64,000 nucleotides of DNA, from positions 9,954-73,953 of the forward strand of contig CAZNLR010000010.1 in assembly GCA_964574215.1 (NCBI GenBank), in the 5' to 3' direction. The DNA is from an uncultured Rhodospirillaceae bacterium. Its GTDB lineage: Bacteria > Pseudomonadota > Alphaproteobacteria > Rhodospirillales > UBA2165. Every line of letters begins with the position of its first letter. Position 1 is the stretch's first letter. Under the pieces are notes generated by a model. That model was not told where the DNA came from. It did not search any database and was given only the letters and a program-made list of their open reading frames with translations. Positions 6,373 through 61,844 of the stretch are shown one piece after another. The position numbers were made by a program, and so were the translations under genes.

Positions 6373-6422
6373 AGCGTGGCGGCGCCTAATCGCCACTGCC
6401 CCATTTTAACAAGGAGGATGTT

Positions 6423-7910: not shown

Positions 7911-7940
7911 CCTTAATTCTAGATTAAGAAGGAGCTAACA

Positions 7941-43894: not shown

Positions 43895-45979
43895 TTATCG
43901 GCCAATAATTTTCTTCACCTGGTAGGCACCCCAGGTTTTACCGTCGCCCGATAGCCGCTCAAATTGATTGCGATGACTTTCCATCCATTCAAGTTCAAAA
44001 GACCCGGGTCCCAACGTGACAATTGTATCGATGTTCGCGTTCAACAGCCTCTGCCGCCAAGAAGCGTAGTCTGCCGTCTTTTCGATCCCGGCGATTAGCG
44101 GCGCCAGGGAGCCGTCTTTGGTTGCTGGAATATAGTGCAATTCGTTTTGATAGCGGCGGCCGAGGAAATAATAGAGGGGCCAGCCTCTCAGCAACGAATC
44201 CACGCCGGCGGTGACGGCAATGCGATGCGGTTCCGCAACTTGATCCAAGATTTTGGCGCCTTCCGCCCAATACCGGGCATGATTGGGAAAAACCGATGTC
44301 CGCTGAAGCAGGGAATATCGGACGCTGTCGCGGACCAGGCCGAGAGAAAGCGTGACGATCATGGAGAAACCGATAAAGAGTATCGGTTTGTAAAATCGTG
44401 GCATGCTCTGCCAAAGGGCATATGCTAATCCCAGTACGGCGAGAACGCCCAGGGATAGCCAAAAGTCGAGGCCCGGCCAAAATACGAGATTGAGCCCCAT
44501 ATGGAGGAAGCTCCAAATAATGACGACGATAAAAAGGGGTGTATTTAAATGCCTCCACGAATCCAGAAGATAAATGCTGAAAACAGTGCTCAACACGATG
44601 GCCGGAAGAAGGAATCGTCCGGAAAGCCGGTTGAACATCAATCGCGTGTAAGAGAAATCCGGCGAAAAGTAGGCGAACAGGGTTCCCACCAGCACGGCCG
44701 CTGCTAACAAGGCGTATTTCGGGTTAACAAAATAAAGTTTAGCCATGCCGAAAATGCCAACGGCTAGAAATGCCGCCGTTGGCCATCCTATATAAGTGAT
44801 GGTATTGGCGAGCGCCCGAAATTCGGTTTTCAAATCGTAGGGGTTCAGATCGGCAATCTGCTTCAGCCAGTCGAAATAAAGGCTTTCGGCACCAAGCCTC
44901 ACGCCGGCTACCTGCAAAGGAACAAAGCCGAATAGATAGCCGGTTTTCATATATTCCCGGATGGGCCAGGGGATGAAAACGGCGGCGAGAACGCAGCATG
45001 CCAGCAGGTAAAATATAAAATTTCCGGATTTTTTGTCGGCCTCGGTAGCCATTGCCCACGTCACAAGGCAAAACAGGAGCGCGACCGTGGTCATTGCCGA
45101 TAGCTTCAAACCGGCGGTCAGTCCCAGAGCCATAAAGCAGATGATCAAGTCGGCGCGGTTCCGGTTTCTGAGCCACCGCAAAGCGAACAAGAAGGATGCT
45201 GAAATAAAGACCGTTAGCGCCGTATCGTTCTTGCCGGTGCCGACGGCAAGATAAACAGCAGGGATCAGCATCAGATAGGTAACGGCGGTCCAGCGGCCCA
45301 AACCACGAATGCCTAGTTCACTGCATATGGCGATGATTGCAATGGCCAGAAAAATCCAGGCGGCTATATCCAATAGTGGCAATAGAAGATCGCTGTGAAA
45401 GGGCAGCATCAGCCACGCCATCAGAGATTCGTATCCACCGGGAAAACTGGCGTGCATGGAAAAATAGGCGGGGATCTGCAGCGAAAATCCGGTTCCCTCC
45501 TTGACCCACAAGGCCGCCCTTACGGCATGATAGGCCAGGGCGTCACCACCGATCACCGGGAGAATGAGAATGCGGGCCACGGTGAAAATGATGATGGCGA
45601 AGACCACATAGGCAAGCGGCCGGTAGGGTGATGAGCCAGCCATCCGAAGGACACGATACCAGCAACACAGATCGCTATGAACGGCGCGGCTGAAGGCTGT
45701 TGGCGTAAACTGCAGGTAGGTCCGACCGGCCAGCGCCAAGGCGGTTAGCACCAGGCAGGCCCAGGTAAGTGTAAAAGCGCCAAAGGCGAGCAGAATATGA
45801 AAGCAAAGGCTGGCGGTCCAGGCGCCGACAATGAAAGCGGCGCACCAGCGGACGGCGATGTTTGCTTGGGGTAACAGTTTCTGCACCGCGCCACAGGCGA
45901 TAAAAATAAATACCGACAGAATATAGACGGCTGGTAACGACCGGAGGAGAATATCGATTGTCAAATTGCCCAAAGTCAC
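43895..45979 (-). CDS. Large polytopic membrane protein with C-terminal soluble domain; possibly GT-C-type glycosyltransferase
   Basis: 694 aa with more than 12 predicted TM segments, followed by ~130 soluble residues. The first loop GGDALAYHAVRAALW is faintly reminiscent of ArnT/PMT-type GT-C enzymes. The functional call is weak. Confidence 0.3.
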   Translation of the reverse strand: MTLGNLTIDILLRSLPAVYILSVFIFIACGAVQKLLPQANIAVRWCAAFIVGAWTASLCFHILLAFGAFTLTWACLVLTALALAGRTYLQFTPTAFSRAVHSDLCCWYRVLRMAGSSPYRPLAYVVFAIIIFTVARILILPVIGGDALAYHAVRAALWVKEGTGFSLQIPAYFSMHASFPGGYESLMAWLMLPFHSDLLLPLLDIAAWIFLAIAIIAICSELGIRGLGRWTAVTYLMLIPAVYLAVGTGKNDTALTVFISASFLFALRWLRNRNRADLIICFMALGLTAGLKLSAMTTVALLFCLVTWAMATEADKKSGNFIFYLLACCVLAAVFIPWPIREYMKTGYLFGFVPLQVAGVRLGAESLYFDWLKQIADLNPYDLKTEFRALANTITYIGWPTAAFLAVGIFGMAKLYFVNPKYALLAAAVLVGTLFAYFSPDFSYTRLMFNRLSGRFLLPAIVLSTVFSIYLLDSWRHLNTPLFIVVIIWSFLHMGLNLVFWPGLDFWLSLGVLAVLGLAYALWQSMPRFYKPILFIGFSMIVTLSLGLVRDSVRYSLLQRTSVFPNHARYWAEGAKILDQVAEPHRIAVTAGVDSLLRGWPLYYFLGRRYQNELHYIPATKDGSLAPLIAGIEKTADYASWRQRLLNANIDTIVTLGPGSFELEWMESHRNQFERLSGDGKTWGAYQVKKIIGR

Positions 45980-46070: not shown

Positions 46071-47834
<1,764 letters not shown>

Positions 47835-47873: not shown

Positions 47874-47887
47874 TTGACTTAAATCAA
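47874..47887. promoter_or_regulatory. FNR/NNR/Dnr-type box in the nirS-nirI divergent spacer
   Basis: TTGAC-TTAA-ATCAA (TTGAT-N4-ATCAA consensus family), 45 nt upstream of the nirS ATG within the 201-bp divergent spacer. Confidence 0.7.
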
Positions 47888-48029: not shown

Positions 48030-50231
48030 GTGTATCAATTCACTAGGACTTTGTTTTATCCGATTCTGATATTGGCGGCGGTGATGCTGCCGGCCTGTAT
48101 GGGCTCGGGTTCCTTTGGCACCGCAGCATATGGCGCTGAGAAAATTCAGGGAGCCGACCAAGAAAAATACGCAAAATTTTTTCCTCACTTATTTCCCAAG
48201 GCGACTTATTTCGGCGGAATCTCCGGTTCGCCTCCTTCGGTGCCGGTCTTTAACGATCAATCACTAATCGGCTATGTATTTTTCTCTCGGCAAGTATCCG
48301 CTTCTGTCGGTTATTCGGGGAAACCGTTGAATGTCTTGGTCGGGCTTGATTTAGAAGGAACCATTACCGGCGTCAGGATCGTCGAGCATCATGAACCAAT
48401 TTTGGCCATCGGGATTACGGACAAGGATCTAAAAGAATTTACGCGGCAATATGTCGGGCTTAATGTCCGCAATCCCGTGCGCATCACCCGAAACCGGGAA
48501 GGAGACCAGGATGACAATACGCTGGATGCGGTCAGCGGCGCTTCAATTTCTTCTATCGTACTGAATGACGCCATAATTCGTTCGGCCAGAGCGGTGGCTC
48601 GTAGCCGCGGTCTATTGGGTAAGGCCGGCCAGCTTTTAGATTTCGATCAGTATTCCCCAGCCAGTTGGCAGGAACTGCTCGAAGAAGGTTCAATTGTCGA
48701 GCGTCATTTGACCATCAAACAGGCCGCGTCAATATTAGCTTCGAAGAAGGCAAGATTGTTCCCAGGCGGAGGCGGGCCGACCAACCTAATGTCATCTTTT
48801 ATTGACCTATCCTTTGGCTTGGCGACGCCGGCTCGGGTCGGACGTAACCTTATCGGCAGACACAGCATCAATGAAATTGTGGCGGGGTTATCGAATGGCG
48901 ACCAGTTATTGTTCCTTGCCGCCAATGGCTACTATTCTTTTCGTGGGCGGGCGTTTCGAAAAATCGGTTATTTCGACCGCATCAGTGTCGTTCAGGGAGA
49001 GCAGAGTTTTCGGCTAACTAAGAATGACTATGTGAGAATTGATCAGTTGCAGGTGGCCGGTGCTCCGGAATTTCGTGAAATTGCGATATTTAAAATTAGA
49101 AAATCAAGCGGTTTTAAAGCAAGCGAACCCTGGCGCCTGGACCTAACCATTGGCGGTGAAAAAGCGAACGGGGAAAAGGCCTTCTCCACCATATCTACAC
49201 TATATAAATTGCCAAAACGCTATTTTCGCAAGCTTGATCCATCGATCAGCATGGACGAACGCATTTGGCTTCAGGTTTGGGAAGAACGATTTGTCGAAAT
49301 CGTTGTCCTGGTTCTCGCTTTAACGGCGCTTACCGGATTTTTCTTTTTTCAGGACTGGGGCGCGCAGCGCCAGCGACTCTATGACATTACCCGCCTCTTT
49401 TTCCTGGTCTTCACGGTGATTGGCCTGGGCTGGTATACGGATGCCCAATTGTCGGTCATTAACGTTCTTACATTTATGCAATCATTATTGACCGAATTTC
49501 GCTGGGATTTCTTCCTGCTGGAACCGCTCATATTTATATTGTGGGGCGGAACGGCATTGTCTTTATTATTCTGGGGGCGGGGCGCTTTTTGCGGCTGGCT
49601 TTGTCCCTTTGGCGCTATGCAGGAATTGTTGGCCAAGTTTGCCCAATTCGTCCGCCTTCCCCAGCTTTCCTTACCCTGGGGCGTTCACGAAAGGCTTTGG
49701 CCTCTCAAATACATTGTTTTTGTCGGCCTGTTCGCCCTGTTCCTTGGTGACGAAGATTTGGCGTTGATGGGTACCGAGATAGAGCCCTTCAAAACAGCCA
49801 TCGTCATGGGATTTGACCGGGCTTGGCCATTTGTACTATATGCCGCAGTTTTGCTCGGTGTCGGCCTTTTTATTAACCGGTTTTTTTGCCGCTACATTTG
49901 TCCCCTCGGCGCTGCCCTAGCGATACCGGCGCGCGTTCGAATGTTCGAGTGGTTGAAAAGGCGTTGGCAGTGCGGCCTGCAGTGTCATATCTGTGCCGAC
50001 AAATGTCCCATTCAGGCCATTCATCCCGACGGACATATTAATCCCAACGAATGTATTTACTGCCTCAATTGTCAGGTTATTTATCATGACGATTCGGTGT
50101 GCCCGCCCCTCGTCGAGAAGCGCAAACGAAACGAAATGCGTCTCGACAAAAGTTTAGTAAAAAGGTTTGAAAAAGCCGAGCAGAAGGGAGAACAGGCGGA
50201 TTCGGTGGAAAGGTCCGAAAATCGTGAATAA
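48030..50231 (+). CDS. nirI: NirI/NosR-family membrane FMN/FeS protein
   Basis: 733 aa. It has a periplasmic FMN-bind motif (LDAVSGASISS), TM helices with CGWLCPFG / CRYICPLG motifs, and C-terminal ferredoxin-type CxxCxxCxxxCP motifs. It is divergent from nirS, as nirI is in Paracoccus. The GTG start at 48030 is uncertain. Confidence 0.85.
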   Translation: MYQFTRTLFYPILILAAVMLPACMGSGSFGTAAYGAEKIQGADQEKYAKFFPHLFPKATYFGGISGSPPSVPVFNDQSLIGYVFFSRQVSASVGYSGKPLNVLVGLDLEGTITGVRIVEHHEPILAIGITDKDLKEFTRQYVGLNVRNPVRITRNREGDQDDNTLDAVSGASISSIVLNDAIIRSARAVARSRGLLGKAGQLLDFDQYSPASWQELLEEGSIVERHLTIKQAASILASKKARLFPGGGGPTNLMSSFIDLSFGLATPARVGRNLIGRHSINEIVAGLSNGDQLLFLAANGYYSFRGRAFRKIGYFDRISVVQGEQSFRLTKNDYVRIDQLQVAGAPEFREIAIFKIRKSSGFKASEPWRLDLTIGGEKANGEKAFSTISTLYKLPKRYFRKLDPSISMDERIWLQVWEERFVEIVVLVLALTALTGFFFFQDWGAQRQRLYDITRLFFLVFTVIGLGWYTDAQLSVINVLTFMQSLLTEFRWDFFLLEPLIFILWGGTALSLLFWGRGAFCGWLCPFGAMQELLAKFAQFVRLPQLSLPWGVHERLWPLKYIVFVGLFALFLGDEDLALMGTEIEPFKTAIVMGFDRAWPFVLYAAVLLGVGLFINRFFCRYICPLGAALAIPARVRMFEWLKRRWQCGLQCHICADKCPIQAIHPDGHINPNECIYCLNCQVIYHDDSVCPPLVEKRKRNEMRLDKSLVKRFEKAEQKGEQADSVERSENRE

Positions 50232-50364: not shown

Positions 50365-50378
50365 TTGACTTAGGTCAA
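50365..50378. promoter_or_regulatory. FNR/NNR/Dnr-type box upstream of the heme-copper oxidase operon
   Basis: Perfect palindrome TTGAC-TTAG-GTCAA. It shares TCxTTGACTTA with the nirS box and lies 99 nt upstream of the first ATG (50478) of the operon. Confidence 0.65.
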
Positions 50379-50477
50379 GGACAGTCCTTTACCCCCCATG
50401 TTCAGTTGCAGGCTTAATGCGCTGGATCTGACGTCAGATGCCGGGGCTTTGTGGCAATCTAAACGAGGGGGACCATC

Positions 50478-50636
50478 ATGACGCCTTCCGACCAACCAAT
50501 GGATGAGCCGATTCCGTTCATGCAGCGGCTATTGGATAATCATTTCTTACTACTTTTTTTAGGAGTTGCTGTACCCACGGTACTTTATATCGTGTGGGGG
50601 ATCGTTGAGATCACGGCAATTCCCGTAGCTAAATAA
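50478..50636 (+). CDS. 52-aa single-pass membrane peptide (not in ORF track; candidate small oxidase subunit)
   Basis: ATG 50478 is preceded by GAGGGGGA (50465-50472). The product is MTPSDQPMDEPIPFMQRLLDNHFLLLFLGVAVPTVLYIVWGIVEITAIPVAK, ending at TAA 50634-50636. It has one clear TM helix and ends 17 nt before the subunit II start. Confidence 0.55.
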   Translation: MTPSDQPMDEPIPFMQRLLDNHFLLLFLGVAVPTVLYIVWGIVEITAIPVAK

Positions 50637-50653
50637 TAGAAGGGAGACACCAT

Positions 50654-51196
50654 ATGTCTATATTTCCTCCCGAAGAGCGCGTCTGGTGGAACACGCCTGT
50701 AGAGAAAACCGAAGTTCTCTGGGTCACCATCGCCTTCATCTGGGGTTTGATCATGTTCTTCATGATGCCCTATTGGCATTTCACCGGTAACCAGAATATG
50801 TCCAACGAGGCATATCAAATCAGCACTGACAGATATTCCGACCTCACTGAAGCTTTCGCGAAAAAATACAAAGTCCGTGAAGAAGGTGACACCGGCGTTC
50901 CCGTTGTTCGCCCGCCGGCAGGTTCCGACGTTTACCTGTTAGGTCGTCTTTGGGAGTGGTGGCCAATCCTCGAGCTTGAGAAAGGCAAAAGCTACCGCCT
51001 GCATCTTTCCTCGATGGATTACCAGCACGGCTTCTCCTTACAGCCGGAAAACATCAATATTCAGGTTCACCCCGGTTATGAATCGGTAATGACCGTAACA
51101 CCCACGACATCGGGTGAATTCGGCCTTATCTGTAACGAATTTTGCGGCATCGGCCATCACACCATGGTCAGCAAAATGTATGTCACCGATAAATAG
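50654..51196 (+). CDS. Heme-copper oxidase subunit II, CuA cupredoxin (ba3-like short form)
   Basis: 180 aa with one N-terminal TM helix. The complete CuA site is YQHGF ... CNEFCGIGHHTM. It aligns closely with my recollection of Thermus ba3 subunit II (ICNQYCGLGHQNM). Confidence 0.85.
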   Translation: MSIFPPEERVWWNTPVEKTEVLWVTIAFIWGLIMFFMMPYWHFTGNQNMSNEAYQISTDRYSDLTEAFAKKYKVREEGDTGVPVVRPPAGSDVYLLGRLWEWWPILELEKGKSYRLHLSSMDYQHGFSLQPENINIQVHPGYESVMTVTPTTSGEFGLICNEFCGIGHHTMVSKMYVTDK

Positions 51197-51209
51197 GAGG
51201 GCATGATAA

Positions 51210-52907
51210 ATGAGTAACGGTAATTTCCGTATCTGCCCGGACACCGGGTTTAAAGTTGATCTTCCCGGCGAAAAGCTGATCAAGATCAATGCTGTAACTG
51301 CTGTCGTCTTCCTTTTGATCGGCGGTCTCTTCGGCGTTCTCGTCGCCTTGACCCGTTGGCCGGAACTTCACATTCTGCCGGCTGACCTGTTCTACCTGGC
51401 GCTGACGGCGCATGGTCTCGATATCCTGCTGGTCTGGATTATCTTCTTCGAAATCGCCTTGTTGTATTTCTGTTCGTCGATTCTGCTGAATGTCAGATTG
51501 GCGATGCCGAAAATCGCCTGGCTGGCTTATTGGCTGATGCTGATTGGCGCTTTGATCACCAACGTCATCGTTTTGATGGGTGATTCGAATGTGATGTTCA
51601 CCTCTTATGTGCCGATGCAGGCCCATCCCGGGTTTTACCTTGGCATCATCATATTCGCCGTCGGCGCCTTGGTTGGTTGCGGTATCTTCTTCGGTACCCT
51701 GGTGATCGCCAAAAAGGAAAAAACCTATGAAGGTTCAGTTCCGCTGGTTACTTTTGGTGCGATAACGGCTGCCATTATTGCCGTATTCACCATCGCCTCC
51801 GGCGCGGTCATCCTGATCCCGACCTTGTTATGGTCGATGGATTTGATCTCCTACATCGATCCCTTGATGTACAAGATCGTCTGGTGGGCCATGGGACACT
51901 CTTCTCAGCAGATCAACGTTTCCGCCCATATCGCCGTATGGTACGCCATTGCCGCGATCCTGTTCGGCGCCAAACCGCTCTCTGAGAAAGTCAGCCGTTT
52001 CGCCTTCCTGATGTACATCCTGTTCCTGCAACTTGCTTCGGCTCACCACCTTCTGGTGGAACCGGCGCTCAGTTCCGAATGGAAAATCGTCAACACCTCC
52101 TACATGCTCTATCTGGCGGTGATGGCTTCCATGATCCACGGTCTGACAGTTCCGGGCGCGATCGAAGCTGCCCAGAGGAAAAAAGGTTACACCAACGGCT
52201 TGTTCGAATGGCTCCGCAAGGCGCCCTGGAGCAATCCGGTGTTCTCCGGCATGTTCCTGTCCTTGATCATGTTTGGCTTCCTCGGTGGTATCACCGGCGT
52301 CATCATGGGCGTCGAGCAGGTTAACATCATCATCCATAATACGCTGTACGTGCCAGGGCACTTCCACGGTACGGTTGCCGCGGGTACCACCTTGGCCTTC
52401 ATGGCGATAACCTACTGGCTGGTGCCGGTCCTCTTCCGGCGCGAGTTGATCCTGCCGGGTTGGGCCAAATGGCAGCCCTACATCTTCGCCATCGGCATCT
52501 CTTTGCTGTCTTTGGCTATGATGGGCGCTGGTACGTTGGGTGTTTCCCGCCGTCACTGGGACATCACCTTCGCCGACGCGGCGATCAAGTTTGATCACCC
52601 GGCCTTGGCGCATCTGATGATGGGTCTCAATGGTGTTGCGGCATTGATCTGCATGGTCGGTGGCTTCATGTTCATTGCCGTGATCGTGGGCTCCCTTCTG
52701 TGGGGTAAACATCGCGGATACGAACCGGCTCCGGAAGCGGCGGCCGAGGCCGAAGCGCCTCCTGCTTCGGCGATGTCGGCCCACGGCGATGCGGGCACCA
52801 TGGAAGTACCAGGGACATTTGTCCTGGCATTGGTCTTCCTGGCGACCTTCGTCCTCTACTACTTCGTGAACTGGAAGTTCTTGGCTTCCACGTGGGGTCT
52901 CAGCTAG
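51210..52907 (+). CDS. Heme-copper oxidase subunit I, B-family-like, lacking the cross-linked Tyr (candidate NO reductase catalytic subunit)
   Basis: 565 aa. The His ligands are retained (LTAHGLD; WWAMGH; SAHHLL; VPGHFHGTV). The helix VI motif reads GHSSQQINVSAH where ba3 has GHPIVYFWLLPAY. Confidence 0.75.
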   Translation: MSNGNFRICPDTGFKVDLPGEKLIKINAVTAVVFLLIGGLFGVLVALTRWPELHILPADLFYLALTAHGLDILLVWIIFFEIALLYFCSSILLNVRLAMPKIAWLAYWLMLIGALITNVIVLMGDSNVMFTSYVPMQAHPGFYLGIIIFAVGALVGCGIFFGTLVIAKKEKTYEGSVPLVTFGAITAAIIAVFTIASGAVILIPTLLWSMDLISYIDPLMYKIVWWAMGHSSQQINVSAHIAVWYAIAAILFGAKPLSEKVSRFAFLMYILFLQLASAHHLLVEPALSSEWKIVNTSYMLYLAVMASMIHGLTVPGAIEAAQRKKGYTNGLFEWLRKAPWSNPVFSGMFLSLIMFGFLGGITGVIMGVEQVNIIIHNTLYVPGHFHGTVAAGTTLAFMAITYWLVPVLFRRELILPGWAKWQPYIFAIGISLLSLAMMGAGTLGVSRRHWDITFADAAIKFDHPALAHLMMGLNGVAALICMVGGFMFIAVIVGSLLWGKHRGYEPAPEAAAEAEAPPASAMSAHGDAGTMEVPGTFVLALVFLATFVLYYFVNWKFLASTWGLS

Positions 52908-52931
52908 AGGGCTTTGCCACATATAATGTTC

Positions 52932-52965
52932 GGGGGCGGACTGAGAAATTTCTCAGTCCGCCCTC
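52932..52965 (+). promoter_or_regulatory. Strong intercistronic hairpin between subunit I and senC
   Basis: Perfect 13-bp stem GGGCGGACTGAGA/TCTCAGTCCGCCC (52934-52946 / 52951-52963) with an AATT loop. It is followed after 5 nt by only TTTT. It could be an attenuating terminator or an mRNA-stabilising element. Confidence 0.5.
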
Positions 52966-53036
52966 AGCATTTTGGGGTAAAATTTCCCTGCTGACTGTAG
53001 GGTTATTTTTGAATTTAAATAAAGTAAAATAGTACG

Positions 53037-53951
53037 ATGTTCAAAATTGAGATACGCAGAATACTGATGTTGGCTGGTTTGGCGCTGGCAGTGGCACCGA
53101 TGCTGGCGGCGCCGGAAAATCTGAGCATCGTTACACCGGCCTTCGGTGATGAAAACGGAAAACGCAAGTTCACCCGCGAATCGTTCCCGGGAGCGTCCAA
53201 GTTCAATCCCGAATCGGCCTACAAGTACAGCCAATCGGCCGTCGGGAAGACCATCGGCAATTACCGGTTCCTCGGTACTGACGGAAAAAGACTGAACCTG
53301 GATCAGTTCAGGGGAGAACCTTTGATCATCAGTATGGTTTATTCCAGCTGTTTCGATATCTGTCCGGCCATTACCATGAATCTGGCTTCCGCCGTCGACA
53401 AGGCGCGGAAAGTTTTGCCTGATAAAAAGTTCAACGTGATATCCATTGGTTTCGACACGTTGCACGATTCGCCCGCGGCCATGAAATTGTTCGCCCGCCA
53501 ATATGACGTCAGCGGCGACAATTGGAAGGTGGTCAGCGGCTCACCCGATGCGGTGGAGCGTTTGGCCGCCGATACCGGCTTCATATATTACAGGTCAGCC
53601 AGAGGATTCGACCATCTGATGCAGACCACCCTGGTGGACGCCGACGGCAAAGTGGACACCCAGATTTACGGCGAAAACTTCGACGCCACCCTTTTGGTTG
53701 AGCCCCTAAAACAACTTTATTTCGGCGGTATTGCCTCGGTGACGAACGTCGAATCCTTTGTCAATCGCGTGCGCCTGTTCTGCACCATCTATGATCCCAA
53801 GACAGACGCTTATAAATTTGATTACTCTTTTTTCATCGGCATGGCGTTAAGCGCTATCGTCCTCTTGCTGATGGGGAATTTTGTCGTCCGCAATGTGTGG
53901 CGGTTGTGGTTTTCCGATCACAAATCCGGCAACGGAACAGCAATGTCTTGA
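53037..53951 (+). CDS. senC: Sco1/SenC-family copper chaperone/thiol-disulfide protein with C-terminal TM extension
   Basis: 304 aa with a signal/anchor, the thioredoxin-fold CxxxCP motif (SSCFDICPAI) and the conserved His context GFDHL. An extra C-terminal TM segment is present (FFIGMALSAIVLLLMGNFVV). Confidence 0.8.
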   Translation: MFKIEIRRILMLAGLALAVAPMLAAPENLSIVTPAFGDENGKRKFTRESFPGASKFNPESAYKYSQSAVGKTIGNYRFLGTDGKRLNLDQFRGEPLIISMVYSSCFDICPAITMNLASAVDKARKVLPDKKFNVISIGFDTLHDSPAAMKLFARQYDVSGDNWKVVSGSPDAVERLAADTGFIYYRSARGFDHLMQTTLVDADGKVDTQIYGENFDATLLVEPLKQLYFGGIASVTNVESFVNRVRLFCTIYDPKTDAYKFDYSFFIGMALSAIVLLLMGNFVVRNVWRLWFSDHKSGNGTAMS

Positions 53952-53981
53952 TCTCCTGAAACTTTAAATTAGAATTGTCTA

Positions 53982-55586
53982 ATGTTAGAAAAAATCCAAA
54001 CTCCGCTGCAGGCGGCACTGTTAATCTTTGAGGGCTGGTTCGACCGCCCGTTAGGTCCCGACTGGAATCCGCTCCGCCATCTGGGCGCTTTGTCCTTCTT
54101 CTTTTTCTGGGTGGTCGTGGTTAGCGGCATTTATGTGTACATCTTTTTTGAAACCAGCGTATCCGGTGCCTACAGCTCTATCGAGCGCATGACCGTCGAT
54201 CACTGGTATTTCAGCGGCGTTATGCGAAGTTTTCACCGTTATGCCTCTGACGCCATGGTGGTGGTCGTTCTGCTGCATATGTTCCGTGAATTTATCATGG
54301 ACCGGTATCGCGGTATCCGCTGGTTTACCTGGGTCAGCGGAATTCCCACCATCTGGCTGCTTTATGCGTCGGGCATCGGCGGCTATTGGCTGGTGTGGGA
54401 CGAATTCGCCCAGTATCTCATCATCGCGTCTTCCGAATGGCTCGACTGGTTGGGTATTTTCGGTGAGCCTCTGGCCAATAATTTCCTGACCCGTGAAGCC
54501 TTCACGGACCGGATGTTTTCGCTGTTGCTGTTTCTCCATATCGCCATTCCGCTGTTCCTGCTGATCGCCAGTTGGATTCACGTCATCAAGATTTCCCGGC
54601 CCCGGATCAATCCGCCCAAAGGATTGGCCATCGGCACCATCGCCATGATGACCGTGTTGTCCTTGATAAAGCCGGCCGTCAGCGATACGCCCGCCGACCT
54701 CAGCATTGTGCCGCAGGAACTCAACCTGGATTGGTTCTATGCCCTGCTTTATCCGTTGTATGACAAGTGGGGCGCAGGGGCGCTGTGGATGATCACGGTC
54801 GGTGTGTCGTCCTTCTTGACCATCCTGCCTTGGTTGCCGCCGCAGAAAATCAATGATTCCGCCGAAGTCGACAATCTGAACTGCAACGGTTGTTCCCGTT
54901 GCTACACGGACTGCCCGTTCGGCGCCGTCACCATGCAGCCGCGAACCGACGGCAGGCCTTATCCGCGTATCGCCGAAGTCAATCCGGATATCTGTACGGC
55001 GTGCGGCATCTGCGTCGGGGCTTGCCCGACGGCGACACCGTTTCGCAGTCAGGATATGCTGGTAACGGGGATCGACCTGCCCAGGTACCGGTTGACGGAA
55101 CTGCGGGAAAGCACGGACAAGTCACTGGCGCAGTTGAAAGAGAAAGTATCCGGCGATAAGCCGCGCATCATTGTCTATGGCTGTGATTTCGGTATCGACG
55201 TTAAGCAGATCGACGCGCCCAACGTGGTGGTCACCAAACTCCCCTGTATCGGTATGCTGCCGCCGTCGTTTGTCGACTACATCCTGATGCGCGGTAAGGC
55301 CGACGGGGTCATGTTGACCGGTTGCCGGGAGGGTGATTGTTTCCACCGCTTCGGCATTCAATGGACGGAGCAGCGGATGGCCGGTGACCGGGATCCTTAC
55401 CTGAGAAAACGGGTGCCGGTTGAACGGGTGCGCACCTGCTGGGGTGCGGTAACAGACTCCAAAAAGCTTCATCAGGAAATAGCCGAGTTCGAGGCGCATT
55501 TGTCGGCGTTGCCGACGATCGAGGTTCTATCTCCTGAAAAACCGCGCAAACCCGTTGCGGACAAACCGAAAGGGGAGGCTGCGTGA
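53982..55586 (+). CDS. Fusion protein: di-heme cytochrome b (bc1/b6 N-terminal type) + 2x[4Fe-4S] ferredoxin + MvhD/FlpD-like domain
   Basis: 534 aa. The four His are in the cyt b pattern (RSFHRY, VLLHMF..GYWLVW, LFLHIA, SWIHVI). The ferredoxin motifs are CNGCSRCYTDCP and CTACGICVGACP. The MvhD-like segment is PRIIVYGCDFG...LPCIGMLPPSFVDYILMRGKADGVMLTGCREGDCFHRFG. Confidence 0.75.
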   Translation: MLEKIQTPLQAALLIFEGWFDRPLGPDWNPLRHLGALSFFFFWVVVVSGIYVYIFFETSVSGAYSSIERMTVDHWYFSGVMRSFHRYASDAMVVVVLLHMFREFIMDRYRGIRWFTWVSGIPTIWLLYASGIGGYWLVWDEFAQYLIIASSEWLDWLGIFGEPLANNFLTREAFTDRMFSLLLFLHIAIPLFLLIASWIHVIKISRPRINPPKGLAIGTIAMMTVLSLIKPAVSDTPADLSIVPQELNLDWFYALLYPLYDKWGAGALWMITVGVSSFLTILPWLPPQKINDSAEVDNLNCNGCSRCYTDCPFGAVTMQPRTDGRPYPRIAEVNPDICTACGICVGACPTATPFRSQDMLVTGIDLPRYRLTELRESTDKSLAQLKEKVSGDKPRIIVYGCDFGIDVKQIDAPNVVVTKLPCIGMLPPSFVDYILMRGKADGVMLTGCREGDCFHRFGIQWTEQRMAGDRDPYLRKRVPVERVRTCWGAVTDSKKLHQEIAEFEAHLSALPTIEVLSPEKPRKPVADKPKGEAA

Positions 55587-56089
55587 TGGGCCGTATTTTT
55601 GATATTCTCGGACAAGGCGTTGCTTATCTTCTGTTTGCGTTGTTTGTCGGGTATTTCGCCAACTCACCGCCTTACAGCCCGTTGGAAAAGGATCAGGCGC
55701 TGGTCAGGCTGAGCATCTCCTACCCCGGACAGCGCATTGCCGAATGCCGCAAGCTGTCGGCCAAGGAACTGCGCGCGAAGGCTCACAACATGCGCAAAGC
55801 CTTCGATTGCCCGCGGGAGCGTCACGCCGTGCGGATCGAGGTGCTGATGGATGGCAAGCCGTTATACGACGGCATCGTCTCGCCCTCGGGTTTGGCCAAT
55901 GACGGTAAATCCCTTTTCTACGAAAACTTTCCCGTTCCCGCCGGCGAACATACGCTGATGGCCCGGCTTTACGACAACGGCGCTAATAAAAAAGCCGGGT
56001 TTCAGGGTGAAAGAGCAGTGCAGCTTGCACCCGGCAAAGTCGCCATCGTCGGTTTCGACCATCGGGATCATAAAATTATGATCAAGTAG
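55583..56089 (+). CDS. Membrane-anchored protein of unknown function
   Basis: 168 aa. GTG 55583 or ATG 55586 overlaps the upstream stop, and AAAGGGGAGG SD lies upstream. It has one N-terminal TM helix (VAYLLFALFVGYF) followed by a soluble domain with no motif I recognise. Confidence 0.6.
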   Translation: MMGRIFDILGQGVAYLLFALFVGYFANSPPYSPLEKDQALVRLSISYPGQRIAECRKLSAKELRAKAHNMRKAFDCPRERHAVRIEVLMDGKPLYDGIVSPSGLANDGKSLFYENFPVPAGEHTLMARLYDNGANKKAGFQGERAVQLAPGKVAIVGFDHRDHKIMIK

Positions 56090-56323: not shown

Positions 56324-56509
56324 ACGCTGGCTGCGCGTGCGCCTATGAATCACCGTTAGAATTTCAATTTTGCCCATTTATATGGCTGAAATTAAACCTT
56401 TTCCTCCCATTTTTCAAATAATTCTAAAATTAACTAAAAAATTCTAACTTCTATTTGATTTTTTACTAAAGGTTTGATATCTTGTTGGCTGATTGACGAG
56501 GCCCCAAAA

Positions 56510-57157
56510 ATGCAAGAATTAAAATCAACTTATAAAACCGAGAAAAAAAGCCGCCGCCGCCGGGAAATTCTGGATGGGGCCGCTGCCGTAATTGCCGAGC
56601 ACGGCTATTTTGCCGCCTCAATGAAAGATATCGCTGATCGGCTCGATCTGAGACCCGGCAGTCTTTACTATTATCTCAAATCGAAGGAAGCCGCCCTCGA
56701 AGAAATCTGCTGGGACGGTGGCATGGAATATGTCTATTACGTCGAACGACTGGCCAAAAGCGGCGCGCCCGCCATGGAAATAATAAGATCAGCCATTAGT
56801 CATCACCTGAGAAATGAAAAACGCGATTACGTTGAATGTTTCGTTTACAACCGGCGTCATCTCGGTGGTGCAGTGGCCGATGGGTTGAACGATGTGGCGC
56901 GGCGATATCTGCGCGCCTGGATTGGGGTTTTTGAACAAGGCATAGAGGAAGGCGTTTTTTCGCTGGGTCTTGATTGCCGATTTGCTGCCACGACGGCGTT
57001 GTCGGTGGTAAACGGCGCGACGCTTGCCTTGAGGGGCAAAGGATCGGAGGAATCGGACCGGTATATTCGTCAAACCACGGAATTTTTTCTCACGGGACTG
57101 GGTGTCTCCGGATGCGGTGAGCCCGCCTACGTAAAAAAGAAAGTTGCCATCGGATAG
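56510..57157 (+). CDS. TetR/AcrR-family transcriptional regulator
   Basis: ATG 56510 is preferred over the TTG 56474 of the track. The HTH is RRREILDGAAAVIAEHGYFAASMKDIADRLDLRPGSLYYYLKSKEAAL. Confidence 0.85.
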   Translation: MQELKSTYKTEKKSRRRREILDGAAAVIAEHGYFAASMKDIADRLDLRPGSLYYYLKSKEAALEEICWDGGMEYVYYVERLAKSGAPAMEIIRSAISHHLRNEKRDYVECFVYNRRHLGGAVADGLNDVARRYLRAWIGVFEQGIEEGVFSLGLDCRFAATTALSVVNGATLALRGKGSEESDRYIRQTTEFFLTGLGVSGCGEPAYVKKKVAIG

Positions 57158-57223
57158 TAAGAGTTTTGATCAAGGGGAGGGGGTTTTCTCCCATTTAACA
57201 TTTCCAGGAAGGAGGAAATTAAC

Positions 57224-57871
57224 ATGACTGACCAATCAAAATTAGTAGACCTAATCGCCGGTATGGACGAAGAGCCCGCCGTCAAATTATCGGTCGAACT
57301 CATGGATGCGGGTACGCCGCCGGAAGATATTCTGGCCGCCTGCCGCCAAGCCATGGATATCGTCGGTAAGAAATTCGAGGAAGGCGAATTCTTTATTCCC
57401 GAGTTGATTCTGGCCGGTGAAATGCTGGAACAGATCGGTAACGAGGTGAAACCTCGCATTAAGGACACTGCCGGCCCGGCCAAGGAAACGTTGGGTACGG
57501 TGATCATCGGTACGGTGCACGGTGATTTGCACGATATCGGTAAAAATATCGTGACCTTCATGTTGGACGTGAACGGCTACGAAGTCATTGATCTTGGCGT
57601 CGACGTCAAACCGCAGGCTTTCATCGATGCTATCAAGGAAAGCTCGGCGCCCGTGGTGGGTCTCAGCGGTTTCCTGACCTTGGCGTTCGATTCCATGAAA
57701 GAAACGGTTGAAGCCATTACCGAGGCCGGTCTCCGCGATAACATTAAAATCATGATCGGCGGCGGACAGGTCGATGAACAAATCCGGACTTACACCGGCG
57801 CCGATTCCTTCGGTCTCAATGCCATGACCGCGGTATCGCAATGCCGGGAATGGATTGCCGAAGCCGCCTAA
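57224..57871 (+). CDS. Corrinoid (cobalamin-binding) protein of a methyltransferase system
   Basis: 215 aa with a GGAAGGAGG SD. It has an N-terminal helical cap plus a B12-binding Rossmann domain with DxHxxG (GDLHDIGKN) and GGG (IMIGGGQV). Confidence 0.85.
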   Translation: MTDQSKLVDLIAGMDEEPAVKLSVELMDAGTPPEDILAACRQAMDIVGKKFEEGEFFIPELILAGEMLEQIGNEVKPRIKDTAGPAKETLGTVIIGTVHGDLHDIGKNIVTFMLDVNGYEVIDLGVDVKPQAFIDAIKESSAPVVGLSGFLTLAFDSMKETVEAITEAGLRDNIKIMIGGGQVDEQIRTYTGADSFGLNAMTAVSQCREWIAEAA

Positions 57872-57896
57872 GCGGTAAACATGACACCAATCTAAG

Positions 57897-59321
57897 ATGG
57901 GTGGGGAAATGCTCGCACTACGAACATGGTCGGCACAGCATGCGCGTTTGGTCGAGATCGTCTATACGGCGTTCTCGCAGGCGGTAAAGCTGTTTACGCC
58001 CATTTTCCGGCGGGTTCCCCAATCCCTTTTAGAGGGGCCGGTCAAAGGCGTCGAACGTTGGGCCAAAGGCTTGATGTTCGATTGCCAGATGTGCGGCCAA
58101 TGCGTGCTCAGTGAAACGGGTATGTCGTGCCCCATGAACTGCCCCAAAAGTCTGCGCAACGGTCCCTGCGGCGGGGTATTCGAAGACGGCGGCTGCGAAG
58201 TGAAGCCGGAAATGCGCTGTGTCTGGTTTAACGCCTGGGACGGCGCCGGCCTGATGAAAAAAGGTGATACGATAAAAGATATCCGCCGACCACTGCGCCA
58301 AAGAATGGCTGGTAAATCAACCTGGGTTCCGATCATGCGGGGCGAGGGTGCCCGCCCGCCGTGGCTGGAGGATGATGACATTGACAGCGACTCCTCTGTC
58401 ACAAAACCGCCGCTCAGCCGTCTTCAGGAAATTTTGCAGGCGGGCGAGTTTGCCGTTACCTGCGAATATAATCCCCCGAATACGGTGATAACCGCCGATA
58501 TTGTGTCCAAAGCGGCATCGTTGGTCGAGGCGTGTGACGCCGTCAATGTCACCGATTGCGCCGGCGCGTATGTCCACATCTCCAGTCTGGCCACCTGCGC
58601 TATCTTGACCCGGGAAGGCGCCGAGCCGGTCATGCAGATGACGTGCCGAGACCGCAATCGCCTGGCCGTTCAGGCTGATATCATGGGGGCCGCGGCGCTG
58701 GGAATTAAGAACATTTTATGCATGACCGGTGATGCGGTCGAGGGCGGTGATCATCCCGACGGCAAGCCGGTTTTCGATCTGGATTCGTCTTCCCTGATCA
58801 GGACCGTTAAGCATATGCGGGATGAAAAAAGTTTTGTGACGGGGAAAGATCTGAAATCAGCCCCCAACCTTTTTATCGGTGGCACGGCCAATCCCATGGC
58901 GCCCTCGACGGAGATCGAAATCAACCGGATGATTAAAAAAGCCGCTGCCGGGGCGCAGTTTTTCCAAACTCAGTTCTGCTATGACATGGAACGGTTCGAG
59001 GCTTTCATGAGCGCCTACCGCGAAACCGGACTGCAAAAATCACGTCACCTGATTATCGGGATCGGCCCTTTGAATTCTGCCCGGGCGGCGCGTTGGATGA
59101 GGGAAAATATTCCCGGTGTCAGAATCCCGCGGGCCATCATCGACCGAATGGAAAGCGTCACAGACCAGAAAGCCGAAGGCCGCGAAATCTGCATAGAAAC
59201 CATCAACCAGTTGAAACATATAGACGGCGTATCCGGCGTTCACATCATGGCCATCAACCAGGAAAGCGCCATTCCGGAAATTGTAAAACGGGCTGAAATC
59301 GGCCCACAATTTAGGAACTAG
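57897..59321 (+). CDS. metF: Fusion of a MetV-type Cys-rich (MTHFR_C) domain with methylenetetrahydrofolate reductase (MetF)
   Basis: 474 aa. The N-terminal ~150 aa carry CQMCGQC-x8-CPMNCPK-x5-PCGG. The remainder is a MetF TIM barrel (FAVTCEYNPP, VNVTD, MQMTCRDRNR, NILCMTGD). Confidence 0.75.
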   Translation: MGGEMLALRTWSAQHARLVEIVYTAFSQAVKLFTPIFRRVPQSLLEGPVKGVERWAKGLMFDCQMCGQCVLSETGMSCPMNCPKSLRNGPCGGVFEDGGCEVKPEMRCVWFNAWDGAGLMKKGDTIKDIRRPLRQRMAGKSTWVPIMRGEGARPPWLEDDDIDSDSSVTKPPLSRLQEILQAGEFAVTCEYNPPNTVITADIVSKAASLVEACDAVNVTDCAGAYVHISSLATCAILTREGAEPVMQMTCRDRNRLAVQADIMGAAALGIKNILCMTGDAVEGGDHPDGKPVFDLDSSSLIRTVKHMRDEKSFVTGKDLKSAPNLFIGGTANPMAPSTEIEINRMIKKAAAGAQFFQTQFCYDMERFEAFMSAYRETGLQKSRHLIIGIGPLNSARAARWMRENIPGVRIPRAIIDRMESVTDQKAEGREICIETINQLKHIDGVSGVHIMAINQESAIPEIVKRAEIGPQFRN

Positions 59322-59328
59322 GGATATT

Positions 59329-60567
59329 ATGAATAAAGACTCCAAAGAATTATTCGACGAACGCCGTCAGCGCATTGCCGATCAAGTGGCGTTGAAAGAG
59401 ACCGACCGGATTCCGTTTTTCTATTCGACCCGGTTCTGGGCGGCGACCTTGGACGGCATTACCTTTGAAGAATCCATGTACGACGTGGAAAAAGCCGTCA
59501 AATCCAATACAAGAGCCATTGAACTGTTGCAGCCGGACGCTTTCTCACCGGCCTGCCATCCCTTCGGCCAGGCCATGGAAATAATGGACTACCATCCTGT
59601 TGAGTGGCCGGGTCATGGCACCGATCCCAATGCTTGTTTTCAATATATCGACAAGGAGTTTATGCCCGCCGATGAATACGACGAGTATCTGACCGACCCG
59701 ACAAATTTCTACATGCAGAAATATCTGCCCAGGATCGGCGGCGCTTTCGAAGGGCTCAAGCACTTTCCCGAATTCACCACCTTATCGGAATGGAGCCTGA
59801 TCAGCGGTATGCGGGCTTTCGCCAATCCTGAACTGCAGGAATCCTTTAAGCGCCTGATGGAGGCCGGCGAACTGGTCGATGCCGCCATGAACCGGGTGAC
59901 CGAGTTTATGAAGGAGATGATCGCGTTGGGTTATCCCATGGCTGCCGGCGGGTTCTGCAAGGCACCCTACGACCACATCGTCGACTTTCTGCGGGGCTCC
60001 AAGGGCGGCATGCTGGATATGTTCCGCCACAAGGACAAGATGCTGGAAGTGATCGAAAAAGCGCGGCTCAAACTGATCAAGGGTGTCGCCGAAGGGGCCA
60101 AGAAAGTCGACTGCCCGTATGTCTTTATCCCTCTTCATTGGGGGCTGGACGGGTTCATGTCGCCGGATCAGTTTAAGACCTTCTATTGGCCGGGACTGCA
60201 CAGGACCCTCATGTATTTTATCGAGCAGGACATTGTCCCCGTCGTTCTGTGGGAAGGTGATTGCACCACGCGCTTGGAAATGATCGGGGACGTTCCCGCC
60301 GGCAAGGCCGTCTATTGGTTTGAACGCACCGATCTGGTTCAAGCCAAGGAAGTGCTCGGCGACGTTGTCTGCCTGCGGGGCAATGTGCCTGCCTCACTGC
60401 TCAACACCGGTACGCCCGATGAAGTAGATGACTACTGCAAAAATTTAATTGAGAAAGTCGGTAAGGGCGGCGGCTTCATGCTGGACGGTGCCGCCAGTAT
60501 CCCAGATGAATCACCGACGGAAAACATCGTCGCCATGGCCGAGTCGGTCAGAAAGTATGCCAATTAA
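59329..60567 (+). CDS. Uroporphyrinogen-decarboxylase (URO-D)-family methyltransferase, paralog 1
   Basis: 412 aa. It has a URO-D/MtaA-like TIM-barrel pattern with a C-terminal block (VFIPLHWGLDGFMSPDQF...LWEGDC...LRGNVP) shared with the next gene. Confidence 0.65.
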   Translation: MNKDSKELFDERRQRIADQVALKETDRIPFFYSTRFWAATLDGITFEESMYDVEKAVKSNTRAIELLQPDAFSPACHPFGQAMEIMDYHPVEWPGHGTDPNACFQYIDKEFMPADEYDEYLTDPTNFYMQKYLPRIGGAFEGLKHFPEFTTLSEWSLISGMRAFANPELQESFKRLMEAGELVDAAMNRVTEFMKEMIALGYPMAAGGFCKAPYDHIVDFLRGSKGGMLDMFRHKDKMLEVIEKARLKLIKGVAEGAKKVDCPYVFIPLHWGLDGFMSPDQFKTFYWPGLHRTLMYFIEQDIVPVVLWEGDCTTRLEMIGDVPAGKAVYWFERTDLVQAKEVLGDVVCLRGNVPASLLNTGTPDEVDDYCKNLIEKVGKGGGFMLDGAASIPDESPTENIVAMAESVRKYAN

Positions 60568-60586
60568 TTTTAAGGAGGGGGAACCC

Positions 60587-61834
60587 ATGTCAGATAAAAG
60601 CGGTGAAGAACTTTATGCGGAGCGCGTGCAACGCATTCGGGACAATATTGACCTGAAGGAAACCGACCGGGTTCCCTACACATTTTTCTCCCACTTCTGG
60701 TCGGCGACGCTGGCGGAGATGACGTTCGAAGACGCGATGTATGATTACGACCGCTACAACGACGCCATGCGCAAGACCATGGAAGTCCTCAATCCCGACG
60801 ACTACGCCATGACGCAAATATTTATCAGTCTGGGACCGACCCTGGAACGCATGGGTTTCAAGCAACTGGAATGGCCGGGCCACGGCACCGATCCCAACGT
60901 GTCCTATCAGTTTTTGGATCAGGAATATATGTCGGCGGACGAATACGACGACTATTTGCGCGACCCGACGGGCTTTTTCCTGCGTAAATATATGCCGCGG
61001 GTGGCGACGGCGTTTGAGCCTTTGGCCATGCTGCCCAATTTCTCCTCGCTTTATTACACCAAGATGATCCGGGCGACGACGGCTTTCGCCAATCCCAAAC
61101 TGATGGCGGGGTTCGAGGAAATTGCCGAAGCCGGCCGGGAAATGCGCAAAATGATGGGGGGCGCCATCGCCTTCACCCAGGAAATGGAGGCGCTTGGTTA
61201 TCCGCAGAGCATCGGCGGTACGGCGGCGGCACCGTTCGATCATTTCGCCGACTATCTGCGCGGCTCCAAGGGCGCCATGCTGGATATGTTCCGTCACAAA
61301 GACAAGCTTTTGGAAGCCATGGACAAGGCGGCTTACTTCATCGCCGAAGACACCATCGAAGCCACCAAGCACAATCCCTGTAAGCAGGTGTTTATTCCTC
61401 TCCATTGGGGATTGGATGGCTTTATGTCACCGGATCAGTTCAACACCTTCTTCTGGCCGCAATTGCGAAAAATCATCCTGATGCTAATCGAAGCAGATTT
61501 GACGCCTTGCGTATTGTGGGAAGGTGACTGCGATACGCGGCTTGAATTCATCGGCGATATTCCGGAGAAAAAAGCCGTTTACTGGTTCGAAAAAACCGAT
61601 CTCAAAAAAGCCAAAGACGTGCTGGGCGATGTGGTTTGCCTGCGCGGTAACGTGCCGTCCTCCATGTTGACCACCGGTACGCCCGACGATGTCGATGAGT
61701 TCTGCAAGGACCTCATCAAATATGTGGGTAAGGGTGGCGGCTTTATTTTGGACGGCGCCATCGGCGTGCCGGACGAGGCGAAGACCGAGAATGTGGTCGC
61801 CATGGCGCAATCCGTTCACAAATACGCCAACTAG
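60587..61834 (+). CDS. URO-D-family methyltransferase, paralog 2
   Basis: ATG 60587 after AAGGAGGGGG is preferred. The track start 60449 lies inside the previous gene. 415 aa, collinear with paralog 1. Confidence 0.65.
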   Translation: MSDKSGEELYAERVQRIRDNIDLKETDRVPYTFFSHFWSATLAEMTFEDAMYDYDRYNDAMRKTMEVLNPDDYAMTQIFISLGPTLERMGFKQLEWPGHGTDPNVSYQFLDQEYMSADEYDDYLRDPTGFFLRKYMPRVATAFEPLAMLPNFSSLYYTKMIRATTAFANPKLMAGFEEIAEAGREMRKMMGGAIAFTQEMEALGYPQSIGGTAAAPFDHFADYLRGSKGAMLDMFRHKDKLLEAMDKAAYFIAEDTIEATKHNPCKQVFIPLHWGLDGFMSPDQFNTFFWPQLRKIILMLIEADLTPCVLWEGDCDTRLEFIGDIPEKKAVYWFEKTDLKKAKDVLGDVVCLRGNVPSSMLTTGTPDDVDEFCKDLIKYVGKGGGFILDGAIGVPDEAKTENVVAMAQSVHKYAN

Positions 61835-61844
61835 GAAACGAAGC

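Follow-up and report, generated by a model that had tools for sequence, protein, structure and literature searches.

A candidate FNR/Dnr-controlled operon for an eNOR-family nitric oxide reductase next to nirS and nirI in an uncultured Rhodospirillaceae bacterium

The window analysed here, a 64-kb stretch of DNA from an uncultured Rhodospirillaceae bacterium, contains a six-gene operon built around a heme-copper oxidase (HCO), a candidate nitric oxide reductase of the eNOR family. Immediately upstream of this operon lie two divergent genes. The first, nirS (46071–47828, minus strand), encodes the cytochrome cd1 nitrite reductase, the source of nitric oxide (NO), with matches to Pfam Cytochrom_D1 (E = 4.4e-148) and to a cytochrome c domain. 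The second, nirI (48030–50231, plus strand), encodes a nirI/nosR-type membrane FMN-binding iron-sulfur (FeS) protein (NCBIfam NosR, 3.5e-217; Pfam FMN_bind and Fer4_5); the NosR score is under the equivalog cutoff, and by its sequence the protein is classed as a NosR-family paralogue.

After nirI, the open reading frame (ORF) list contains six co-directional ORFs on the plus strand, between 50478 and 56089, in the places where an earlier note, made from the letters of the sequence, had put them; the domain calls of that note also agree with Pfam and NCBIfam. The first gene, pep52 (50478–50636), encodes a 52-amino-acid single-helix peptide, and is preceded by a good ribosome-binding site. It is followed by subunit II (50654–51196), with one transmembrane (TM) helix and a CuA cupredoxin domain, identified by NCBIfam CoxB/NosZ C-terminal matches and by alignment to B-family subunits II (the Pfam COX2 match is weak), and by subunit I (51210–52907; COX1, 1.9e-65). 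Next are a Sco/SenC copper chaperone (53037–53951; Pfam SCO1-SenC, 1.9e-13) with a CFDIC motif and an extra C-terminal TM helix, and a 534-amino-acid fusion of a cytochrome b, two [4Fe-4S] motifs and an MvhD-like part (53982–55586; Cytochrome_B, two Fer4 and FlpD/MvhD in Pfam and NCBIfam). The last gene, p168, encodes an anchored protein of 167 or 168 amino acids (55583/55586–56089). Of its two possible starts, 55586 is more likely than 55583; its ATG overlaps with the stop codon (TGA) of the fusion gene. Successive genes are separated by 17, 13, 129 and 30 nt, and the last pair overlaps as TGATG and is translationally coupled. Neither pep52 nor p168 has a Pfam or NCBIfam match.

An FNR/Dnr-type box, TTGACTTAGGTCAA, is found at 50365–50378; the nirI stop is 134 nt upstream of it and the pep52 ATG 100 nt downstream. 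This box is a perfect palindrome, and its near-copy TTGACTTAAATCAA lies in the nirS-nirI divergent region (47874–47887), 46 nt upstream of the nirS ATG, so that both boxes described in the earlier note are in place. Counted over the window alone, boxes with up to one mismatch are not significantly more frequent than expected (3 against 1.7). Of 74 related loci, however, 51 have TTGAY-N4-RTCAA in the 320 nt that precede the peptide gene, mostly 80–160 nt from its start, at a chance per locus estimated at ∼0.001. Control of the operon by low oxygen or NO is a well-supported inference from this pattern, and expression under low O2 or NO would also be expected from homology and published biochemistry. 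Two CRP/FNR-family regulators (cNMP_binding plus HTH_Crp_2) are encoded in the window, at 27035–27781 (plus strand) and 31780–32487 (minus strand), and may act on the boxes at 47874 and 50365. A promoter and terminator consensus scan of the operon gave results not better than shuffles.

The closest solved structures to subunit I are the B-family ba3 oxidases of Thermus thermophilus (E ∼1e-47). The alignment of the window protein covered three sets of sequences: the 80 genomic relatives closest to it, plasmid-borne homologues of cultured organisms, and tyrosine-bearing B-family enzymes. The 80 relatives come from GTDB species genomes (metagenome-assembled genomes, MAGs) of Alpha-, Beta- and Gammaproteobacteria, with a subunit I identity of 65–97%. 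The six canonical histidines (H68, H230, H279, H280, H384 and H386) are present in the window and invariant in all 80. In the alignment the ba3 CuB ligand H233 corresponds to H230, and Y237, the tyrosine of the His-Tyr cross-link, to Q234, which upholds the claim of the earlier note that this tyrosine is missing; there is also no tyrosine at the alternative position in helix VII used by C-family oxidases, where the residue is L273. The surrounding motif is GHSSQQIN in the window, against GHPxVYFW in the ba3, Haloarcula, Deinococcus and Geobacillus enzymes, and the pattern GH[SG][SA]QQ[IV]N is common to the window, the 80 relatives, and the Defluviimonas, Magnetospirillum, Thermomicrobium roseum and Thermus-plasmid enzymes. 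Q233, Q234, N236, Y245, S307 and H310 are invariant in 80/80 relatives, and the Q233-Q234 pair extends to the Thermus, T. roseum, Magnetospirillum and Defluviimonas enzymes. A K-channel-like set of residues is conserved, namely Y245 (ba3 Y248), S307 (S309) and T/S313 (T315), while ba3 T312 is replaced by the invariant His310.

A neighbour-joining tree, in which the Rhodothermus marinus eNOR sequence was not included, places the window protein with those of Magnetospirillum, Defluviimonas, T. roseum and the Thermus plasmid, and the tyrosine-bearing enzymes apart. Identity is 71% to the Magnetospirillum protein, 43–46% to those of T. roseum and Thermus, and 27–32% to O2 reductases. The Deinococcus and Geobacillus plasmid matches had been considered as anchors for the sNOR family, but proved to be tyrosine-bearing O2 reductases.

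The resemblance to ba3 extends beyond subunit I, as the T. thermophilus cbaDBA operon (PDB 1EHK/1XME) has the same order of peptide, subunit II with one TM helix and CuA, and subunit I, and the six histidines and the equivalents of Y248, S309 and T315 are kept in the window. The window enzyme might then be a ba3-like high-affinity O2 reductase for microaerobic respiration, its adjacency to nirS reflecting shared low-oxygen regulation only. Its best structural matches are indeed ba3 oxidases, a CuA subunit, a Sco protein, K-channel-like residues and an FNR box would all suit a micro-oxic oxidase, and databases annotate it as a cytochrome c oxidase subunit I. However, ba3 is an O2 reductase that is only ∼28% identical to the window protein and differs from it by Y237 to Q, V236 to Q, W239 to N and T312 to H. 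The cross-link tyrosine is thus replaced within an invariant Gln-Gln pair, with leucine at the helix VII position; the Gln-type Thermus and T. roseum enzymes are closer in identity than the tyrosine-bearing B-family enzymes compared; and the characterised eNOR cannot reduce O2 (PMC11214002). A ba3-type O2 reductase was rejected on the GHSSQQIN motif and the lack of a tyrosine at either position, and I consider this explanation very improbable. The public names of the relatives are nonetheless "cbb3-type cytochrome c oxidase subunit I" or "cytochrome C oxidase subunit I", and "hydrogenase iron-sulfur subunit" for the fusion protein.

The residue at the tyrosine position is a published marker of HCO families: it is Tyr in O2 reductases, Gln in eNOR, Asn in sNOR and bNOR, Asp in gNOR, and Glu in cNOR and qNOR (PMC8756737 Table A4, after Hemp & Gennis, 2008). 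Because the window enzyme has the Gln that marks eNOR, its sequence very probably makes it a member of that family. In the Thermus plasmid relative (46% identical), an HFK motif corresponds to His/Lys ligation of the low-spin heme, and such ligation is reported for some eNORs (Murali et al., 2024, PMC11214002). The gNOR family, in which an active-site histidine is replaced by Asp and CuA is missing (Murali et al., PMC11214002), was rejected since the three metal-ligand histidines are present and the CuA site is intact; this site in subunit II is complete, with H...CNEFCGIGHHTM following the pattern H...C-x-E-x-C-x3-H-x2-M. The cNOR, qNOR and nNOR families, which are marked by an active-site Glu, a C-family-type subunit I (cNOR and qNOR) and a cytochrome c or fused N-terminal domain, were rejected on the B-family relatives, the lack of a cytochrome c subunit, and the presence of Gln instead of Glu, and sNOR and bNOR on the presence of Gln, not Asn.

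The earlier note had compared the operon to the sNOR cluster of ammonia oxidisers, which has the order norSY-senC-orf1. The outline is shared, with a CuA subunit, a tyrosine-less subunit I, a senC/sco gene and an extra ORF in both. But sNOR and bNOR have Asn at the tyrosine position (PMC8756737), and sNOR has another K-channel region, in which the literature reports no conserved Ser309, the residue that is invariant here as S307; it also forms another clade in the published tree, and the content of the window operon matches that of a published eNOR operon, described below. Membership of sNOR therefore seems even less probable than a ba3-like oxidase. What stands of the earlier proposal is an alternative nitric oxide reductase of the families of Hemp and Gennis; its nearest analogue is eNOR.

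The eNOR family and much of its operon content are already described in the literature. The enzyme of R. marinus DSM 4252 was purified, contains heme A(s), and reduces NO (0.68 s−1 at 25 °C) to nitrous oxide (N2O), but not O2 (Murali et al., 2024, PMC11214002). From its description, rather than from a sequence alignment, it resembles the window enzyme in being a B-family-derived HCO with a CuA subunit, no cross-link tyrosine, K-channel-like residues and the family marker Gln, in a host with nirS; it differs in that the window operon has neither ctaA nor ctaB although the family uses heme A(s). A purified "cytochrome a1-like hemoprotein" of Magnetospirillum magnetotacticum MS-1 was also assigned to eNOR (Murali et al., PMC11214002), and Magnetospirillum sp. 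WYHS-4 carries an operon of the window type; these are different strains, not linked by sequence. The literature counts eNOR in 547 GTDB genomes and 2709 IMG metagenome sequences, and reports its expression in Accumulibacter and Gallionellaceae KS. In Ferrigenium straubiae KS, the operon encodes eNOR II, eNOR I, a heme o synthase, sco1, an "eNOR scaffold protein of unknown function" and two cytochrome b/[Fe-S] proteins termed "rather unusual", and its transcripts and proteins were found under denitrifying conditions (bioRxiv 10.64898/2026.01.22.701106). It shares with the window eNOR II, eNOR I, sco1, the scaffold protein and the cytochrome b/[Fe-S] proteins; the heme o synthase is present there and absent here, and one paralogue there has FAD/NADH domains instead of MvhD. 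The earlier note had held that very few of these families were tested biochemically and that the accessory genes were essentially uncharacterised. The latter is sustained, but the novelty was overstated, as eNOR has been characterised biochemically and the operon partly described (PMC11214002; bioRxiv 10.64898/2026.01.22.701106).

Overall, I estimate at roughly 80% the probability that an eNOR-family nitric oxide reductase is encoded here, by an operon that is under FNR/Dnr-type control and is paired with nirS and nirI; homology and published biochemistry make NO reduction the probable function of the enzyme. In this scheme, NirS would make NO in the periplasm, and eNOR, a complex of subunit I, the CuA subunit II and probably the 52-amino-acid peptide, would convert it at a heme/non-heme-metal site (2 NO + 2 e− + 2 H+ → N2O + H2O). 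The active site would keep its three histidines with Gln in place of the cross-link tyrosine, electrons would enter through CuA, itself loaded by Sco, and protons would probably come from the cytoplasm through the K-channel analogue (Y245, S307, H310 and T313), making the step electrogenic.

The earlier note had stated that no norCB or norZ gene is present in the window, and no other HCO was detected there: a tblastn search with more than 80 HCO subunit I sequences found no second one (best E 0.036), and no other obvious NO-handling gene was seen among the larger window ORFs scanned. Two points count against the proposed scheme. A canonical norCB or norZ may be present elsewhere in the genome, beyond the 64 kb. 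Also, this operon has no ctaA, ctaB or hemerythrin gene, and neither ctaB nor hemerythrin is found elsewhere within the window; cofactors would therefore have to be supplied from elsewhere in the genome. A ctaA or ctaB gene often accompanies eNOR, but does not define the family.

Wherever the contig reaches, all 80 loci show the order peptide, subunit II, subunit I, sco, cytochrome b/FeS/MvhD fusion and p168, and the apparent exceptions correspond to contig ends, an assembly gap (L047) and frameshifts (L015). A pep52 homologue is found in 78 of the 80 loci, sco in all of them, and the fusion gene in every locus whose sequence reaches that far. The full order includes ctaB (a UbiA-type heme O synthase) between subunit I and sco in 63/80 loci, and hemerythrin after p168 in 59/80; ctaA is found in the operon flanks of five. 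Genes of the cd1 family occur within 8 kb in 28/80, as does the adjacent nirS of the window. The window and its closest relatives (L001–L004) represent a reduced variant without ctaB and hemerythrin. Among cultured organisms, all eight genes are found on a plasmid of a Defluviimonas isolate, and the version of Magnetospirillum sp. WYHS-4, which has the GHSSQQIN motif, is the reduced one. The eNOR-type operons of Thermus and T. roseum consist of the peptide, II and I only, without sco, cytochrome b and p168, and that of T. roseum has in addition a ctaA-ctaB fusion. Close relatives of the window are MAGs from the Arabian Sea, Saanich Inlet and the North Pacific.

Several details of individual loci can be added. 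Hemerythrin genes after p168 lie, for example, at 13377–13766 in L011 and 14529–14933 in L081, and L011 also has a weak cytochrome c'-like ORF upstream (6336–6806). Proteins of the hemerythrin and cytochrome c' types bind O2 or NO, and the placement of hemerythrin parallels that of norA beside norB in Ralstonia. The Thermus operon, of Gln type with the peptide-II-I order and the HFK motif, is at 6307–8668 of the megaplasmid pTthSNM6-6b of T. thermophilus SNM6-6 (L082); its neighbours are genes for an Rrf2 regulator, a multicopper oxidase and a cytochrome P460, and it is annotated as a cbb3- or b(o/a)3-type oxidase. One locus labelled "uncultured Halobacteria archaeon" (L074, CAWKAE010000009.1) has a full proteobacterial-type operon with 65% subunit I identity and nirS and nirI nearby; the probable reason is an error in binning or in the label, and not the presence of a window-clade eNOR in an archaeon.

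The small peptide is also found upstream of subunit II in the eNOR-type operons of Defluviimonas, Magnetospirillum, T. roseum (51 amino acids) and the Thermus plasmid (41 amino acids), with a shared motif, LLDNxFLLL...LYLxWG...IP, around one TM helix. Its gene has the position of that for ba3 subunit IIa (cbaD), in an enzyme whose subunit II is also single-TM. Position and conservation suggest that it is probably the third, small subunit of eNOR. For Sco, a second copy is encoded in Magnetospirillum sp. WYHS-4 together with a PCuAC (LpqE-like) gene, divergently upstream of the eNOR operon (L088, 2866–3941), which gives two Sco paralogues around one CuA enzyme.

A very stable hairpin with a 15-bp perfect stem is found at 52925–52971 (plus strand), where 96 nt fold with −48.1 kcal/mol (z −7.4). 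It lies directly 3′ of the subunit I stop, is followed by AGCAUUUUGGGG, and occupies the site of ctaB in most relatives. L001, L003 and L004 have GC-rich hairpins of other sequence at the same site, and these three and the window are without ctaB. A possible role of the hairpin, as an attenuator or through RNA stability, is to fix the proportion between structural and accessory transcripts.

I then considered the two accessory proteins. The fusion protein has the two-heme pattern of a cytochrome b (H85/H99 and H186/H200, conserved) and twelve conserved cysteines, in two CxxCxxCxxxCP motifs and four in the MvhD-like part. The stretch that separates helices E and F contains an invariant D250-W251, at about the position of PEWY in bc-type cytochromes b. 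An AlphaFold2 model (pLDDT 77) has six TM helices followed by a soluble domain; with the cytochrome b topology, this predicted FeS/MvhD domain must be cytoplasmic. Foldseek and profile searches relate the N-terminal part to cytochrome b6/bc1 and the C-terminal part to an HdrA-type ferredoxin and MvhD. More precisely, the N-terminal 210 residues match cytochrome b6 (7e-24) with its twofold His-x13-His heme pattern, and residues 293–512 match the ferredoxin and MvhD unit of the HdrA2 C-terminus and MvhD chains. QmoC, which combines FeS clusters with a NarI-type cytochrome b, is a functional analogy. In contrast to bc1 and b6f, the window unit has no Rieske gene, no cytochrome c1 or f gene and no heme ci cysteine of the b6 type; since neither a Rieske nor a cytochrome c gene belongs to the conserved cluster, it does not qualify as a Rieske/cytochrome b complex. 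Among the papers listed by a literature search, none joined MvhD with a nitric oxide reductase, and MvhD was named in none of them.

The AlphaFold2 model of p168 (pLDDT 92) shows an N-terminal TM anchor and a beta-sandwich, which is predicted to be periplasmic. Foldseek against the PDB returned generic beta-sandwiches only, with E above 1e-3 and no specific fold match, and hhalign against PCuAC gave nothing. The protein has an invariant C55 and C76-x-R-x-R, and a conserved methionine; the cysteine pair has no adjacent histidines and does not follow the Rieske pattern CxH...CxxH. A profile search identified 1485 representatives of the family at 50% clustering. Among these are natural fusions with the cytochrome b, four of ∼690 amino acids that comprise cytochrome b, FeS, MvhD and p168, and two of ∼460 amino acids that join cytochrome b directly to p168 without FeS/MvhD; one of the latter is present on two independent contigs in a ctaB-sco context. 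Their topology is compatible with an N-in/C-out p168. From these fusions it follows that cytochrome b and p168 form one functional unit, to which, judged from the same sequences, the FeS/MvhD wire is an optional addition. This survey adds that the small peptide and the cytochrome b/p168 unit are near-universal partners of eNOR in Proteobacteria, and that natural fusions exist: cytochrome b/[Fe-S] genes that were "rather unusual" in F. straubiae occur in essentially all 80 loci here.

As one membrane unit, a di-heme cytochrome b wired to cytoplasmic FeS clusters, together with an anchored periplasmic beta-sandwich, could link the quinol pool, a cytoplasmic reductant, or both to the periplasmic side. 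I tentatively prefer to see it as a dedicated electron-transfer module for eNOR, a reading whose chances I place just short of even. Two observations speak against such a module. In most operons the unit follows two clear biogenesis genes, ctaB and sco, which favours maturation. It is also absent from the eNOR-type operons of Thermus and T. roseum, and is therefore not needed for eNOR catalysis as such.

The fusion protein and p168 might instead be maturation factors of eNOR, and not a respiratory electron path. They might move electrons across the membrane for the modification of heme O or heme A(s), or might hold Sco/Cu or the non-heme metal in a reduced state while it is inserted. The position of the genes, after ctaB and sco and before hemerythrin in most relatives, fits this idea, as do the two invariant cysteines and conserved methionine of p168 and the lack of the unit in Thermus and T. 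roseum. The modified heme A of eNOR, whose synthesis needs O2, raises a further question, since its route under near-anoxia is regarded as a puzzle in the literature; ctaA is found in only 5/80 flanks, and the T. roseum operon, which lacks the unit, carries a ctaA-ctaB fusion. However, p168 is unlike Sco, PCuAC or any known chaperone, and a complete di-heme cytochrome b of the bc type, which has elements of the cd and ef loops and an invariant Asp-Trp at the PEWY position, is elaborate for a chaperone. Furthermore, little can be concluded from the lack of ctaA in the operon, as Proteobacteria usually hold this gene elsewhere, for their aa3 oxidases. The idea that the unit is an O2-independent heme A synthase was retained solely within this maturation explanation, because the complementarity with ctaA rests on too few non-proteobacterial operons. 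I regard a role in maturation as possible, but less probable than the electron-transfer module.

A more specific proposal is that cytochrome b (with or without FeS/MvhD) and p168 form an undescribed, Rieske-less bc-like complex that splits quinol electrons for eNOR. The combination of a bc-type cytochrome b, an MvhD wire and a p168 partner is not a described complex. Here p168 would sit on the periplasmic face at the site of the Rieske head, where quinol would be oxidised; one electron would pass to eNOR, NO/N2O being a very strong acceptor, and the other would reach the cytoplasmic FeS/MvhD wire by way of both b hemes. NO reduction would then drive the reduction of a low-potential cytoplasmic carrier or, in reverse, eNOR would draw electrons directly from a cytoplasmic reductant. 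A similar speculation was put forward for the FAD/NADH paralogue of F. straubiae (bioRxiv 10.64898/2026.01.22.701106). I consider this proposal unlikely, well behind a role in maturation; if true, it would represent a new coupling of denitrification to energy or redox balance.

The remaining neighbours of the operon are described here for completeness. The gene directly downstream of nirS, on the same strand (43895–45979, minus strand), encodes a 694-amino-acid polytopic membrane protein to which Pfam and NCBIfam give no match, and of which none of the 80 related loci has a homologue. Genes for heme d1 biosynthesis, or similar to nirN or nirF, were not detected within the window, although several related loci have such paralogues beside the operon. 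The operon is directly followed, at 56474–62528, by a TetR regulator and a corrinoid methyl-transfer cluster, which comprises two URO-D/MtaA-like methyltransferases, a B12-binding protein, and an MTHFR that has DUF5981 at its N-terminus; the TetR gene is common only to the window and its 97% identical relative L001.

These results assign a likely N2O-forming step to a marine Rhodospirillaceae-like lineage. Because the enzyme is annotated as a "cytochrome c oxidase", nirS carriers of the window type would be scored as lacking a nitric oxide reductase, and denitrification gene surveys that rely on names will miss eNOR. The proteobacterial eNOR operons have fixed partners, namely the small peptide, Sco, the cytochrome b-FeS-MvhD fusion and p168, usually with ctaB and hemerythrin, and cultured carriers exist in Magnetospirillum and Defluviimonas. 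The interest that remains lies in the small peptide and in the conserved, uncharacterised cytochrome b/p168 unit, which, taken as one unit, offers a handle on the electron source and the maturation of eNOR under near-anoxia.

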